A stretch of DNA of 64,000 nucleotides from Escherichia phage PNJ-9 (PQ100635.1), one strand, 5' to 3'. Positions 41,915-52,396 are shown, counted from the stretch's first letter. The notes: generated by a model not told the origin, from the sequence alone. A program made the numbers and translations.

Positions 41915-43357
41915 GTGGTAGAAATTATTTTGTCTCATCTAGTATATGACCAGGCTTATTTTTCTAAGGTCTGGCCTTATATGGATTCTGAGTATTTTGA
42001 GCGTGGACCGGCAAAAAACGTCTTTAAAATTATAAAGAGCCACGTTAACGAATATAATGCAATGCCGTCTATCAACGCATTAAAGGTGGCTTTAGATAAC
42101 AGTTCTTTAACTGAAGCCGAATATAAAGGAACTTCAGATCTAATTGAAAAATTGGCTGATACTCCTGAAGACCACGAATGGTTGGTTAAAGAAACTGAGA
42201 AATATGTCCAGCAAAAAGCGATGTATAATGCTACATCCAAAATCATTGAGATTCAGTCTAATGCTGAACTACCTCCAGAACAACGTAACAAGAAAATGCC
42301 TGACGTAGGAGCTATTCCTGATATTATGCGTCAAGCACTTTCAATTTCGTTTGATAGTTATGTTGGGCATGACTGGATGGAAGACTATGAAGCACGCTGG
42401 CTTTCTTATCTGAACAAAGCACGTAAGGTCCCGTTCAAATTAAACATTCTGAATAAAATCACTAAAGGTGGTGCTGAAACCGGTACACTGAATGTTTTAA
42501 TGGCTGGTGTTAACGTTGGTAAATCTTTAGGCCTTTGTTCACTTGCTGCAGATTATCTTCAAACAGGTCATAATGTTCTTTATATTTCCATGGAAATGGC
42601 TGAAGAAGTTTGTGCTAAGCGTATAGATGCAAACATGCTTGACGTATCACTTGATGATATCGATGATGGTAACGTATCTTATGCCGAATATAAAGCCAAG
42701 ATGGAAAAATGGCGTTCAAAATCCACATTAGGACGTTTAGTAGTTAAACAGTATCCTACTGGTGGAGCTAATGCTAATACATTCCGTGCATTGCTTAATG
42801 AATTGAAACTCAAGAAGAACTTTGTGCCATCTGTAATCATGGTTGATTACTTAGGTATTTGTGGGTCTTGTCGTATCAGAGTTTACACTGAAAATAGCTA
42901 CACATTAGTTAAAGCTATCGCAGAAGAACTTCGTGCATTAGCAGTAGAATCTGAAACAGTTCTATGGACTGCAGCTCAAGTAGGACGTGCAGCATGGGAT
43001 GCTTCGGATATGAACATGAGCGATATTGCAGAATCAGCAGGTTTACCAGCAACGGCAGATTTCATGTTGGCCGTAATTGAAACCGAAGAACTTGCACAAG
43101 CTGAACAACAACTTATCAAACAAATCAAATCACGATACGGTGATAAGAATAAGTGGAATAAATTCCTGATGGGTGTACGTAAAGGCAACCAGAAATGGGT
43201 TGAGATTGAGCAAGAAGGCATGAACACACCTAACACAGTAAATGAAAACGCAGGTGCTCAGATGCGTCAGGCAGAGGTGAATCGTACGGAACGCGTAGGT
43301 AAAGCCAAAACAACCCGTGCTGACCTAGATAGCTTAGCCAATGAGTTAAAATTTTAA
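41915..43357 (+). CDS. 41: replicative DNA helicase gp41 (DnaB-like)
   Basis: 480 aa; Walker A GVNVGKS; GTG start after AAGGAG RBS. Confidence 0.9.
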   Translation: MVEIILSHLVYDQAYFSKVWPYMDSEYFERGPAKNVFKIIKSHVNEYNAMPSINALKVALDNSSLTEAEYKGTSDLIEKLADTPEDHEWLVKETEKYVQQKAMYNATSKIIEIQSNAELPPEQRNKKMPDVGAIPDIMRQALSISFDSYVGHDWMEDYEARWLSYLNKARKVPFKLNILNKITKGGAETGTLNVLMAGVNVGKSLGLCSLAADYLQTGHNVLYISMEMAEEVCAKRIDANMLDVSLDDIDDGNVSYAEYKAKMEKWRSKSTLGRLVVKQYPTGGANANTFRALLNELKLKKNFVPSVIMVDYLGICGSCRIRVYTENSYTLVKAIAEELRALAVESETVLWTAAQVGRAAWDASDMNMSDIAESAGLPATADFMLAVIETEELAQAEQQLIKQIKSRYGDKNKWNKFLMGVRKGNQKWVEIEQEGMNTPNTVNENAGAQMRQAEVNRTERVGKAKTTRADLDSLANELKF

Positions 43358-43363
43358 TAAAAA

Positions 43364-43383
43364 GGAGACTTCGGTCTCCTTTC
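43364..43383 (+). terminator. hairpin terminator (TTCG tetraloop)
   Basis: GGAGAC-TTCG-GTCTCC followed by TTT. Confidence 0.5.
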
Positions 43384-43386
43384 GGG

Positions 43387-43416
43387 GTTTACATCTCCCT
43401 CTAGGCATGATATGAT
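43387..43416 (+). promoter_or_regulatory. early promoter (GTTTAC, 17 bp, TATGAT)
   Basis: Read directly. Confidence 0.5.
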
Positions 43417-43445
43417 GTACTTACACTAACCGAGAGGAAAACATT

Positions 43446-43820
43446 ATGAATATGTCTCAAGCAATTTTTACTGCAATCACCGAAAACACAACTGTTGAAG
43501 TAGTTTCTCCGCTGGCAACCTACGTTATTCTTGCTCCTAAAACTATTGTATCTCGTATGGAAAACATGGGCAAACGTATCGTACAAATTGTTGGAGCCGG
43601 AAATCAAAAACTTGATTATCTGCGAACCATCAAAGCTTATGAACATTTCCAACTCGAAAAAGGTTCTCCTATCCAGGTAGAACTCGTAAATGGTGATATC
43701 GTTCGAGCAATGTTCCATCATTTCTATGCATTGAATGACCCATCTAAAGCAGTTCGTTTAATTGCATACGACGCAAACCAAAACGAAATCAACGCAGATG
43801 TATCTAAATTACGTTTTTAA
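43446..43820 (+). CDS. hypothetical protein (124 aa)
   Basis: GAGAGGAAAA RBS. Confidence 0.5.
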   Translation: MNMSQAIFTAITENTTVEVVSPLATYVILAPKTIVSRMENMGKRIVQIVGAGNQKLDYLRTIKAYEHFQLEKGSPIQVELVNGDIVRAMFHHFYALNDPSKAVRLIAYDANQNEINADVSKLRF

Positions 43821-43849
43821 GTTTACTTCTCCAGTAGTTGTGTTATTAT
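43821..43849 (+). promoter_or_regulatory. early promoter (GTTTAC, TATTAT) with perfect 12-bp dyad CTCCAGTAGTTG/CAACTACTGGAG
   Basis: Read directly; right arm overlaps the SD of the next gene. Confidence 0.55.
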
Positions 43850-43875
43850 AGACTTATCAACTACTGGAGAACAAA

Positions 43876-44193
43876 ATGAAAACCATCGATTGTAAAGCAG
43901 AATTTAAGATTTTTTATCACGGTTCAAGTAGTTCAGCTAACATCGAAAACATGCTTTGTCCTCCTGAGGAAACAGGAGTTCTGTCTGAAACTGGACGTAA
44001 GAAAAACTTGGATCGTGTATTCTTTACTGAAGATATCGGTTTAGCAAAGATTTATGCAGGACGAGCAGCACGCTCTTATGGAGGTGAACCACGTCTCTAT
44101 CGAGTAATTTCTCCGGTAGACGTAGTTCAAATGAATAATACTAAAGGTGCTACAGTTTATCACGCTGAATGGGCATTTTGCGAGGAAATATGA
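43876..44193 (+). CDS. Arr-like (rifampin-ADP-ribosyltransferase family) small ADP-ribosyltransferase
   Basis: 105 aa; FYHGSSSSANI and RVFFTEDIGLAKIYAG...EPRLYRVISP align with Arr motifs from memory. Confidence 0.5.
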   Translation: MKTIDCKAEFKIFYHGSSSSANIENMLCPPEETGVLSETGRKKNLDRVFFTEDIGLAKIYAGRAARSYGGEPRLYRVISPVDVVQMNNTKGATVYHAEWAFCEEI

Positions 44194-44381
44194 GCAAATT
44201 AACTAAAGTTACTTTTATCGGTTGGTTTAAAAGCGGCGAGATGTTCACTAAAGATATCATGTTATCAGGTGACCGTGAAGAAATCGAGTGGGTTACGGTA
44301 CAACTTGCTGAAGTGAACAAAGCATTAGTTAAAGCATTTGTTAATGACGAGAAAGTTTTTGAAGCTGATTTCAGAGGATAA
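44190..44381 (+). CDS. hypothetical protein (63 aa)
   Basis: ATGA-coupled start after GAGGAA. Confidence 0.45.
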   Translation: MSKLTKVTFIGWFKSGEMFTKDIMLSGDREEIEWVTVQLAEVNKALVKAFVNDEKVFEADFRG

Positions 44382-44382
44382 T

Positions 44383-44595
44383 ATGTATTCAACTGTGTTT
44401 AAACCATCAACATACGAATTTGCATCAACTACACAATGGAAAGCTCTTATTCTGGAAGGATGGGAACTAATGATGGACTGTGAAGCATCTGAAAAGTTTC
44501 CACACGGCAAAGTGGACTTCGTTAAATTTGCTGTACGTCCGACTAAACGACAGATTCGTCAAGAAAAACGCAAATTTCGCAAAAGTTTAAAATAG
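44383..44595 (+). CDS. small basic protein, RPTKRQ-motif family (70 aa)
   Basis: C-terminal FAVRPTKRQIRQEKRKFRKSLK; ATG after AGAGGATAAT. Confidence 0.45.
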   Translation: MYSTVFKPSTYEFASTTQWKALILEGWELMMDCEASEKFPHGKVDFVKFAVRPTKRQIRQEKRKFRKSLK

Positions 44596-44597
44596 AT

Positions 44598-44627
44598 GTT
44601 TACAAGCATCGCATACTGTGTTACTAT
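44598..44627 (+). promoter_or_regulatory. early promoter (GTTTAC, 17 bp, TACTAT)
   Basis: Read directly. Confidence 0.5.
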
Positions 44628-44655
44628 CTTTCTATCAACTACAGAGGAAATTGAA

Positions 44656-45024
44656 ATGAAAAAATTAATCGCTTTAGCAATGGTATTTGGATTAACCGGA
44701 TGTGGTGCCCACGGCTTTATCCCTAATAACGTTGGCCAACTGATTTACAATCCGAATGTTAAACAGTATGACCAACCTAAAGTTGAAGTGGAAGACCCGG
44801 TTACTGTAGGTAATCGAATGATTCAAGCTGATGCCCATGCTCAACGTTATCGTGACTCTGATACTGTAGCATTATCAAAAGAACAACGCGTTAAAGAACA
44901 TTGTCTACAGGCTACTGAAATCGCATTCATTCGCTATGTTGAAACAACTGGTAAAGAGCCTACCCAGAAACAAATCGCGAATAACTACGTCCGGTGTATT
45001 GAACGTTTAAACAAATTTAATTAA
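44656..45024 (+). CDS. predicted lipoprotein (122 aa)
   Basis: Signal peptide with lipobox LTGC; AGAGGAAA RBS. Confidence 0.55.
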   Translation: MKKLIALAMVFGLTGCGAHGFIPNNVGQLIYNPNVKQYDQPKVEVEDPVTVGNRMIQADAHAQRYRDSDTVALSKEQRVKEHCLQATEIAFIRYVETTGKEPTQKQIANNYVRCIERLNKFN

Positions 45025-45084
45025 TTGGTTACACCAAAGTTAAAACAAGATATTATAAACATAACAAATCAAGAGGAAATTAAC

Positions 45085-45333
45085 ATGGAATTATTCGTAG
45101 CTAGTTCAGTAGCAGTTTTAATCGCAGGTATTGGTTCAATCGTCATTTATATGTTGCCTTGGGTAATCGCACTTATTCGTGGCACAAAAAGCACAACAGC
45201 AATCTTCTTTGTATCTTTACTCTTTAACTGGACGATGATTGGTTGGATTGGAACTTTAATTTGGTCTATCGTTGCCGAAAAGAAATCTGCTCAGCAGCCT
45301 CAACAAGTAATTATTATTCGCGAAAAAGAATAA
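45085..45333 (+). CDS. Imm-like superinfection immunity membrane protein (82 aa)
   Basis: Two TM helices; LPWVIALIRG...MIGWIGTLIWSIV resembles the superinfection-immunity family signature. Confidence 0.55.
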   Translation: MELFVASSVAVLIAGIGSIVIYMLPWVIALIRGTKSTTAIFFVSLLFNWTMIGWIGTLIWSIVAEKKSAQQPQQVIIIREKE

Positions 45334-50888: not shown

Positions 50889-51497
50889 ATGTTTATGCCG
50901 TATAACGAGTGTGAAATTGAAGAAATGGTTCGTCGTGCTCAATGCCCAGACTATCAGGATGAACTTCAGTACAAAATCGATGAGCAATTCAGCGACATTG
51001 AACAAAGTGTACTATGGCAATGTATGGAAAACAAGCCAGACAGCATCCAACAAGATTTAAGTGCAATTGTTCGTAGAAATTGGACGTCTTCTGTTCCTGA
51101 GACAATGTATCGTGGAATCTCTAAGAAAACTATGGCCACACTCGATGATAAAGGCGTTGGTAGTATTATTAAATTTGATAGAGTAATGAGCTTTAGTCCG
51201 GTGTTTGGTGTAGCACGTAACTTCGCTTCGTATAATTTTTACGGAACATTTAATATGTTCTGCATCAAAGATGCACCATTTGCTTTCAACTTCCGTGAAC
51301 ATATGCTTAACATGATTCTGGCTGCGCCATCTTGTGAGTTCAATGGAGCTTTCCCTGAAGCGACAAGACGGTCTAATGCTAGACTTATATCTGACGAATG
51401 TGAATTTATGCTCCCTATAGGGACTACACTGCGTGTAGATTCTATTATTCAAGATGGACGTTATACAATCTGGAATCTGACTATTGTCAGTTACTGA
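50889..51497 (+). CDS. ModA/ModB-like ADP-ribosyltransferase (R-S-E type)
   Basis: 202 aa; YRG, SFS and DECEF motifs in R-S-E order; position between soc and srd/dda as T4 modA/modB. Confidence 0.55.
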   Translation: MFMPYNECEIEEMVRRAQCPDYQDELQYKIDEQFSDIEQSVLWQCMENKPDSIQQDLSAIVRRNWTSSVPETMYRGISKKTMATLDDKGVGSIIKFDRVMSFSPVFGVARNFASYNFYGTFNMFCIKDAPFAFNFREHMLNMILAAPSCEFNGAFPEATRRSNARLISDECEFMLPIGTTLRVDSIIQDGRYTIWNLTIVSY

Positions 51498-51649: not shown

Positions 51650-52396
51650 ATGTTATCAAATAATAAAATTAACAAAATCAATCGTCGTCTTGACCACACC
51701 AGAGCTTCTGCGAAGAGACGCTCTAAGGATTTTAACTTAGACTTTAATTACCTTAAAAACATTCTTGATCAAAAGGTCTGCGCTTACTCAGGTGAATCTT
51801 TCAATAACTCTGTTGAAGGTGAGAAATTATCCTTAGAACGTTTTAATAACGATATCGGCTACATTAAAGGTAATGTTATCCCAGTTAAGAAAAAATATAA
51901 CACAGCTCGTTCTGATTTAACATTAGAAGAACTTATTGAGAAACGTGATGCCATTGCAAGACGTATCGCTAATCCTTCTGCTCGTAAAGTAGAGAAACTT
52001 AATCTCGACGAGAAGAAATGGGCCCAAATTAAAAAGGTTTATGATACTATTTTAAAAATCCGAGCAAAACGTGAAAATCGTGTTAAGCATATGGCGAACA
52101 TGATGAAAAATCAACCTTTATCTGACGAAGCTAAACTTAGAATTGTTGCTTTGAAAGCACGCATTAATGGCTCGCATCAAGCAGAAGGCCATGAACTTAC
52201 TAAACTCAACGTTCTTCTTAAAGGCTCTGACTGGAAAACTAAAACTAAATTAACTGACGCTGAATCGCTTTTCGATACATATGATAAAGTTATCAAAGGT
52301 CTGCAACGGTTTGAAAAGATTGGTTTCATTGGTAAATTAAAATTGAAACGTGGCTTACCACTTAGCGCATCATTATTCCAACTGATTAAAGGTTAA
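51650..52396 (+). CDS. srd: Srd-like protein (248 aa)
   Basis: Size and position upstream of dda match T4 srd; assignment by synteny. Confidence 0.5.
   Translation: MLSNNKINKINRRLDHTRASAKRRSKDFNLDFNYLKNILDQKVCAYSGESFNNSVEGEKLSLERFNNDIGYIKGNVIPVKKKYNTARSDLTLEELIEKRDAIARRIANPSARKVEKLNLDEKKWAQIKKVYDTILKIRAKRENRVKHMANMMKNQPLSDEAKLRIVALKARINGSHQAEGHELTKLNVLLKGSDWKTKTKLTDAESLFDTYDKVIKGLQRFEKIGFIGKLKLKRGLPLSASLFQLIKG

Follow-up and report, generated by a model that had tools for sequence, protein, structure and literature searches.

An Arr-related protein of 105 residues with an ADP-ribosyltransferase fold, encoded immediately upstream of dmd in an RB69-like phage and widespread among T4-like phages

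The textbook case of host reprogramming by phage T4 is the ADP-ribosylation carried out by Alt, ModA and ModB. These three phage ADP-ribosyltransferases (ARTs), which are synthesised or delivered as soon as infection starts, belong to the clade with an Arg-Ser-Glu active site. KptA/Tpt1 (PDB 9LD3, 8TFI) consists of two lobes, a C-terminal one that binds NAD+ and an N-terminal one that binds RNA and carries the Arg-His part of the catalytic tetrad. In the rifampin ADP-ribosyltransferase Arr (PF12120; PDB 2HW2, 9IAF, 9IBA), an HGT motif has a role in NAD binding, and the rifamycin-related features comprise the catalytic Asp84 within DPN[V/L] (100% conserved in Arr), an SN[Y/F] motif, and C-terminal contacts to rifampin (PMC6092378). 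In T4, dmd and tifA form an early operon that inhibits the RNase toxins RnlA/LsoA and ToxN, and gene 61.2 (adfA) inhibits DarT (PMC9391042). Iyer, Burroughs, Anantharaman and Aravind (2022) described an ART, of their 'p0068-family', that is paired with Dmd in phages of Escherichia, Shigella and Salmonella, and put it in the H-Y-[EDQ] clade, with the actinophage homologues of the rifampin ART as a separate group (PMC9503650).

The window analysed here, a stretch of 64,000 nucleotides from Escherichia phage PNJ-9 (PQ100635.1), is an RB69-like Mosigvirus genome, in which region 43400-44600 shares 98.8% identity with RB69 and 99.0% with phage JN02. Directly upstream of dmd lies an ATG-to-TGA ORF with exact boundaries, which has GGAG 6 nt 5' of its ATG, matches RB69ORF040c / NP_861730, and is assigned to PHROG 2110 (E 7e-60), a group whose function is not annotated.

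43876..44193, + strand: coding sequence of the 105-aa Arr-type minimal ADP-ribosyltransferase-fold protein (RB69ORF040c homologue, PHROG 2110)
43866..43869, + strand: Shine-Dalgarno sequence GGAG of the ART gene (direct sequence reading)

The protein reads MKTIDCKAEFKIFYHGSSSS..., and the FYHGS sequence pointed out in a preliminary description of this DNA is present at residues 13-17. The ORF is a real gene under strong purifying selection, with dN/dS values of 0.07-0.13 against four homologues. A terminator-like site inside the coding sequence (43961-43978) was rejected as a chance occurrence, since shuffled sequences are expected to give one. Iyer et al. describe, as found here, an ORF for an ART-fold protein located just before dmd in T4-type phages of enterobacteria (PMC9503650), and their gene is probably this one. 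Several GenBank records also label the gene 'ADP-ribosyl transferase'. In RefSeq record NC_018855 (phage HX01, locus L001), the 61.4/tifA homologue is named 'DNA polymerase' and the Imm.1 homologue 'iduronate sulfatase'; product names in this record look unreliable, and its 'ADP-ribosyl transferase' label is thus not independent evidence.

When searched alone, the window protein gave no hit to Arr. Direct HMM scans against Pfam, NCBIfam and PADLOC found nothing, the protein falls below every curated threshold in the Pfam and NCBIfam scans and has no match in either database at E<=10, and it accordingly stays below the gathering threshold of PF12120 (25 bits), with no match to that family even at E<=10. 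Neither the protein alone nor a profile of its close T4-like subfamily matched a PDB sequence. The broadened family, in contrast, does match Arr. An exhaustive profile search found 229 cluster representatives, and the window protein was aligned with 32 diverse members (33 in total; alignment A2), the profile of which was used against PDB. This profile matches M. smegmatis Arr (2HW2/9IAF) with an E value of 3.9e-5 and Arr-2 with 0.014, placing FYHGS opposite YLHGT of Arr and 'SExGRKKNLDRVFFT' opposite 'FEAGRIMNHIYIT'. Many of the Arr sequences retrieved were frameshifted fragments, and a cleaned set of nine was used for the Arr alignment; hhalign of A2 against these nine genuine Arr sequences gave 96.7% probability (E 3.6e-10, 70 columns), and the T4-like subfamily alone gave 56.6% (E 1e-4). 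Individually, 18 of the 33 members match PF12120 (Arr-ms) at E<=0.01, with no other family recurring, and several relatives exceed its gathering threshold (35.2 bits for P0177, 31.5 for P0155). The alignment of FYHGS and downstream motifs with Arr, which the preliminary description pointed out, is therefore beyond chance, although an HMM match to the Arr family comes from the family profile and not from the single protein.

The fold points in the same direction. The AF2 model of the window protein is confident (pLDDT 86.9), contains the split beta-sheet ART core, and has ARTs as its closest structural matches; Foldseek against PDB ranks Arr first, with probability 1.0. A match in BFVD is a phage protein of 94 aa, 37% identical, that bears the name 'Rifampin ADP-ribosyl transferase'. 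Since the family profile, hhalign and the fold matches agree, the similarity to Arr reflects true remote homology: the 105-aa protein is homologous to Arr and has an ART fold. Other phage ARTs are more distant. Unlike Alt, ModA and ModB, which are two to six times larger, the protein has none of the marks of the R-S-E clade (strand 1 Arg, S-T-S motif, and catalytic Glu). The anti-CRISPR mono-ADP-ribosyltransferase AcrF11 (PDB 6KYF) gives a weaker fold match than Arr or KptA and no detected sequence similarity to the window protein, and the present family is far more conserved than AcrF11, across phages of many host genera.

Conservation over about 145 aligned cluster representatives shows which parts of the Arr core are retained. 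The motifs concerned are as follows.

43918..43926, + strand: codons of His15-Gly16-Ser17, the HG[ST] NAD-binding motif at the end of strand 1 (Arr His19-Gly20-Thr21)
43987..43998, + strand: codons of Glu38-Thr39-Gly40-Arg41, the E-x-G-R motif in the loop between strands 1 and 2 (aligns with Arr Glu40 and Arg43)
44020..44028, + strand: codons of Phe49-Phe50-Thr51 in strand 2 (Phe49 opposite Arr Tyr49, Thr51 opposite Arr Thr51)
44053..44064, + strand: codons of Tyr60-Ala61-Gly62-Arg63 in the long helix (found by conservation)

In 144 aligned representatives, His15 and Gly16 are each 100% conserved, and position 17 is Thr or Ser in 100%. Glu38 and Arg41 are conserved in 97% each, the latter being followed directly by the basic run Lys42-Lys43-Asn44 (GRKKN); Thr51 is conserved in 97%, Tyr60 in 98%, Ala61 in 99%, and Arg or Lys at position 63 in 97%. 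Position 49, which corresponds to the NAD-binding Tyr49 of Arr, is aromatic in 100% (Phe in 94%, Tyr in 6%), so that in the window protein the ring is retained and the hydroxyl lost. No conserved acid equivalent to Arr Asp84 was found among the representatives. The sequence alignment with Arr stops just before Asp84, and the nearest conserved position is Asn87 (55%), in the local segment VVQMNN. Glu103 was considered as the catalytic acid of an H-Y-E triad and rejected, as it occurs in 15% of the representatives and only in the T4-like subfamily; the codons of Glu103 and Glu104 double as the dmd ribosome-binding site GAGG, which may explain this restricted conservation. Thus, the H-Y-(E/D) triad to which the preliminary description had tied the Arr assignment is only partly kept: its His is invariant, but Phe stands in place of Tyr49 and the acid has no conserved counterpart. 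Given that Asp84 is unmatched, catalysis by the window protein could be weak, or the protein might do no more than bind. As catalytic residues, the best candidates would be Glu38 and Arg41, judging from their near-invariance and from their alignment with the loop that forms the NAD site of Arr.

These features bear on classification in two ways. The signature of the H-Y-[EDQ] clade is incomplete, with the His present, Phe as the strand-2 residue, and no conserved Glu, Asp or Gln in strand 5 (G91-A-T-V-Y). On sequence and fold evidence, the gene is placed beside Arr and KptA rather than in that clade. At the same time, the differences from Arr itself are substantial. Arr has about 143 residues, and the phage protein lacks about 40 at the C-terminus, where the helices of Arr form the rifampin pocket. 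DPN[V/L] (Asp84) and SN[Y/F], both present in Arr, are absent, with TGV opposite the SNF of Arr. Furthermore, Arr is a resistance gene, whereas the phage protein would be the product of an early gene of a lytic phage. Because the acceptor module and the DPN motif are missing, the phage protein is an Arr relative, not a rifampin-modifying Arr, and the Arr-family assignment first suggested is partly supported.

Homologues of the gene are present in 609 phage records, including phages of Escherichia (215), Klebsiella (116), Acinetobacter (68) and Aeromonas (62), as well as of Enterobacter, Cronobacter, Vibrio and others. The ART and the essential gp41 helicase (41915-43357 in the window) were compared in the same phage pairs (loci L003, L005, L011 and L012). 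Relative to the window, identity is 87.6% for the ART and 67.3% for gp41 in VR5, 80.4% and 65.1% in Entb_45, 77.9% and 64.3% in PEi20, and 73.2% and 61.1% in Acj133. For VR5, dS is 0.74 for the ART and 2.3 for gp41, and the high ART identity may therefore partly reflect gene exchange between phages, beside purifying selection. That the ART is so conserved in phages whose hosts differ speaks for a conserved target and against a fast-evolving defence protein. The window also contains a Mod-like ART, a single gene (50889-51497) located directly upstream of srd (51650-52396) where T4 has modB and modA, with about 33% identity to each of the two T4 proteins. Among phages of Acinetobacter and of Aeromonas, Mod-like genes are scarce or escape detection (<=11 records each, against 68 and 62 for the Arr-type gene), so the distributions of the two types look partly complementary.

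The Arr-type domain is not confined to small proteins. Among 149 representatives, 89 are stand-alone and no longer than 150 aa; the length is above 400 aa in 29 and above 1000 aa in 11. Fusion partners include lambda-type portal, minor-tail (tape-measure-like), ART-PolyVal, NUDIX, 2H/Acb1-like, GNAT, Toprim and DUF7178 domains, and one fusion is located on a large phage contig. In P0133, P0136, P0161, P0168, P0142 and P0178 the domain lies within giant phage proteins of up to 3924 aa, some of which combine it with a second, unrelated ART (ART-PolyVal), or contain GNAT plus Toprim. Such large fusions carry the signature of polyvalent or virion-delivered effectors (described in PMC5512222), which fits an immediate-early role in T4-like phages.

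The ART gene is flanked by gene 41 and ORF041c on one side and by dmd, 61.4, imm.1, imm, sp and 61.2 on the other. Its regulatory surroundings and the two following genes are listed below.

43821..43849, + strand: early-type sigma-70 promoter-like site (-35 GTTTAC, 17-nt spacer, -10 TATTAT, TG upstream; consensus scan 9/12 with TG)
43827..43871, + strand: 14-bp RNA hairpin (RNA fold -22.1 kcal/mol, z -4.7, 0/200 shuffles as good)
44190..44381, + strand: dmd (discriminator of mRNA degradation, RnlA/LsoA inhibitor; Pfam Dmd E 9e-22, RB69 annotation)
44383..44595, + strand: 61.4 / tifA homologue (ToxN inhibitor), third gene of the ART-dmd-tifA unit (Pfam DUF7279 E 5e-20, RB69 annotation)

From its resemblance to the consensus, the site at 43821..43849 would function as a promoter, with a predicted transcription start of the ART gene near 43856. 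An early promoter stands at the equivalent place before dmd-tifA in T4 (PMC9391042), and early-type promoters also lie just 5' of the ART homologues of Dhakavirus, Slopekvirus and two Aeromonas phages. The promoter-like site and the hairpin overlap: the promoter spacer serves as 5' arm (43827-43840), the -10 hexamer falls in the loop, and the Shine-Dalgarno GGAG is part of the 3' arm (43858-43871). Since a transcript starting near 43856 is without the 5' arm, promoter-proximal early transcripts alone should be translatable, and on read-through transcripts from gene 41 or ORF041c the modelled hairpin may block ART translation. In T4, a similar promoter-in-hairpin arrangement precedes dmd (locus L010, 1055-1112, minus strand), with the ribosome-binding site outside the hairpin.

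The ATG of dmd overlaps the ART stop codon (ATGA), and its ribosome-binding site GAGG lies within ART codons 103-104. A mechanical ORF list starts dmd at ATG 44169 (70 aa; 44169-44381); homology and the RB69 annotation favour ATG 44190 (63 aa). Since dmd, tifA and 61.2 are toxin inhibitors in T4, the ART stands at the head of a group of counter-defence genes; in the early regions of T4-type phages, neighbouring genes say little about function. Between 61.4 and sp, the RB69-type genome carries imm.1 and imm (about 44596-45333), whereas in the T4 locus L010 61.4 is directly followed by sp, and this cluster of counter-defence and exclusion genes has thus been rearranged. On the other side, the ORF041c homologue (43446-43820; 124 aa, PHROG 10668) is without a Pfam match and was seen only in the two RB69-type (Mosigvirus) loci among those compared. 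It has its own early-type promoter-like sequence (43388-43416; TTTACA, 17 nt, TATGAT) after a GC-rich hairpin (43363-43383), just past gene 41.

The gene product is predicted to be, and on its sequence probably is, an active early ADP-ribosyltransferase. As a whole explanation we propose a minimal NAD+-using mono-ART of the Arr/KptA branch that is made early and acts in trans, a proposal in which our belief somewhat outweighs our doubt. The inferred enzymatic activity, expression timing, translational gating and acceptor class would then be these. The NAD-binding core would persist in His15-Gly-Ser, Phe49-x-Thr51, Tyr60 and the E38-x-G-R41 loop, with the C-terminal rifamycin acceptor pocket and the catalytic Asp of Arr lost. 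In the first minutes of infection, transcription would start from the gene's own early promoter, with the ART as first gene of the ART-dmd-tifA unit, and on read-through transcripts the hairpin would probably keep the ART untranslated. The enzyme would act in trans on a target conserved across gamma-proteobacterial hosts, in host takeover or counter-defence; in other phages, the domain is part of large proteins that also have virion or polyvalent-effector domains and are presumably delivered with the DNA. As to the acceptor, we lean, with low confidence, towards a nucleic acid or nucleotide modified at a phosphate or hydroxyl, as by KptA and Arr, and not towards protein arginine. This is because the nearest characterised relatives act on phosphate (KptA) or hydroxyl (Arr), a catalytic acid of the canonical kind is not conserved, the invariant loop has a strongly basic character (GRKKN), and the fusion partners include 2H and NUDIX domains, which have roles in processing ADP-ribose derivatives (PMC9503650). 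No biochemical or genetic study of any family member was found in the literature.

Among the alternatives, the one that survives best takes the resemblance to KptA/Tpt1 literally, with the protein performing Tpt1-type RNA repair (2'-phosphate removal) or ADP-ribose capping of RNA/DNA terminal phosphates after cleavage by host RNase toxins. The fold of the NAD+-binding C-terminal lobe of KptA/Tpt1 does align with the phage protein, over 75 residues only, but the sequence profile detects no similarity to KptA/Tpt1 and there is no PTS_2-RNA match in Pfam, even at E<=10. Moreover, at 105 residues the window protein is missing the whole N-terminal RNA-binding lobe, and for this reason Tpt1 membership was rejected. 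No 2'-phosphate remains after RNA repair of the T4 type, by Pnkp and Rnl1, which also counts against repair of the Tpt1 type, and we consider this alternative distinctly unlikely.

Iyer et al. interpreted the ART as the toxin of a phage type II toxin-antitoxin pair, with the downstream Dmd as its cognate antitoxin. The overlap of ART stop and dmd start, the position of the dmd ribosome-binding site inside the ART, and the adjacency of the two genes in both Mosigvirus and Dhakavirus are all in accord with such a pair, and in Klebsiella phage Kpn BM7, as these authors noted, dmd follows directly 3' of an unrelated Mod-like ART. In that phage (locus L017, 1980-3641), dmd lies between the Mod-like R-S-E ART gene and srd; dmd thus adjoins two unrelated ART families in different lineages. 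Nine other ART loci were compared, with dmd sought by tblastn (E<=1) and Pfam. ART and dmd are neighbours in the two RB69-type records, which are Mosigvirus, and in VR5, a Dhakavirus, but no dmd was found within about 2 kb of the ART in any of Entb_45, PEi20, KP15, RB43, Acj133, Aes012 and ZPAH1 (7/7), nor near the ART of a distant Vibrio phage homologue by the same tblastn (E<=1) and Pfam searches. A hidden Dmd-like partner 3' of the ART in the seven records was rejected, as the ORFs there belong to six unrelated PHROGs or to none. In Kanagawavirus, the ART occupies the same slot after gene 41 and is followed by the periplasmic protein spackle, which is one of these six PHROGs, and in KP15, RB43 and Aes012 a few genes separate it from srd further downstream. 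Conversely, T4 has gene 41 followed directly by dmd without an ART between them. Four-base overlaps are routine in these phage operons, and a toxin that stays 65-88% identical without a conserved partner is a poor fit to a cognate pair. Dmd also has an established independent role against RnlA and LsoA (PMC9391042). Across the loci compared, ART and dmd do not form a conserved adjacent toxin-antitoxin pair, and judged by this gene order an obligatory ART-Dmd pairing looks weak; as the explanation of the gene, we find it quite improbable.

It may also be asked whether the ART fold is catalytically dead, the protein serving instead as a binder of NAD+ or of an ADP-ribose signal (a sponge for an immune messenger) or as an inhibitor of a host protein. 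Phages are known to deploy sponge proteins, the present protein is small and is encoded within a counter-defence gene cluster, and the canonical catalytic position has no conserved acid. However, the invariant HG[ST], together with aromatic-x-T, Tyr60, Glu38 and Arg41, is the pattern kept by an NAD-using enzyme, and large phage proteins of several domains combine this domain with further enzymatic effector domains, which makes a dead fold very improbable. Finally, that the gene is a genuine Arr, a phage-carried enzyme inactivating rifamycin-type antibiotics, was rejected and is almost inconceivable despite the homology and the Arr genes known to be carried by actinophages (PMC9503650), since the protein is below the Pfam threshold and without the C-terminal ~40 residues (rifampin contacts), DPN[V/L] (the catalytic Asp84 and rifampin contacts) and SN[Y/F] (a predicted NAD+ contact), and since rifamycin resistance would be without evident benefit to an immediate-early gene in lytic phages of enterobacteria, Acinetobacter and Aeromonas.

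The early mini-ART acting in trans, to which we return, can be extended to a more specific idea, which we regard as unlikely in its full form: that T4-type phages possess a fourth, mechanistically distinct ADP-ribosylating enzyme, an Arr/KptA-type mini-ART without a canonical acid, which would modify a non-protein acceptor by a new, Glu38/Arg41-based catalysis. If this is true, the acceptor would be an RNA/DNA terminal phosphate, tRNA or mRNA, or a nucleotide immune signal, modified in the first minutes of infection. The mini-ART would then be the main early ART of the Acinetobacter, Aeromonas and Slopekvirus phages without detectable Mod enzymes, and the invariant Glu38/Arg41 loop would represent a new catalytic arrangement in the ART fold.

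The ART prediction for this gene is already published (PMC9503650) and present in GenBank labels, and is not new. New here are the placement beside Arr and KptA, the account of which Arr features are kept and lost, the Glu38/Arg41 signature, the conservation exceeding that of gp41, the promoter-in-hairpin layout, and the evidence against an obligatory partnership with Dmd. The value of the analysis thus lies in a sharper family assignment and in the clear experiments it suggests. An extra predicted ART unrelated to Alt, ModA and ModB is encoded by RB69-type phages and by hundreds of T4-like phages that infect Klebsiella, Acinetobacter, Aeromonas and Vibrio. With its 105 residues, it is an attractive minimal ART scaffold for structural work, and as an Arr-type core without the antibiotic pocket it bears on the origin of the clinically important Arr resistance enzymes. 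Identification of its target could reveal a new step of host takeover or counter-defence, possibly ADP-ribosylation of a nucleic acid or nucleotide.
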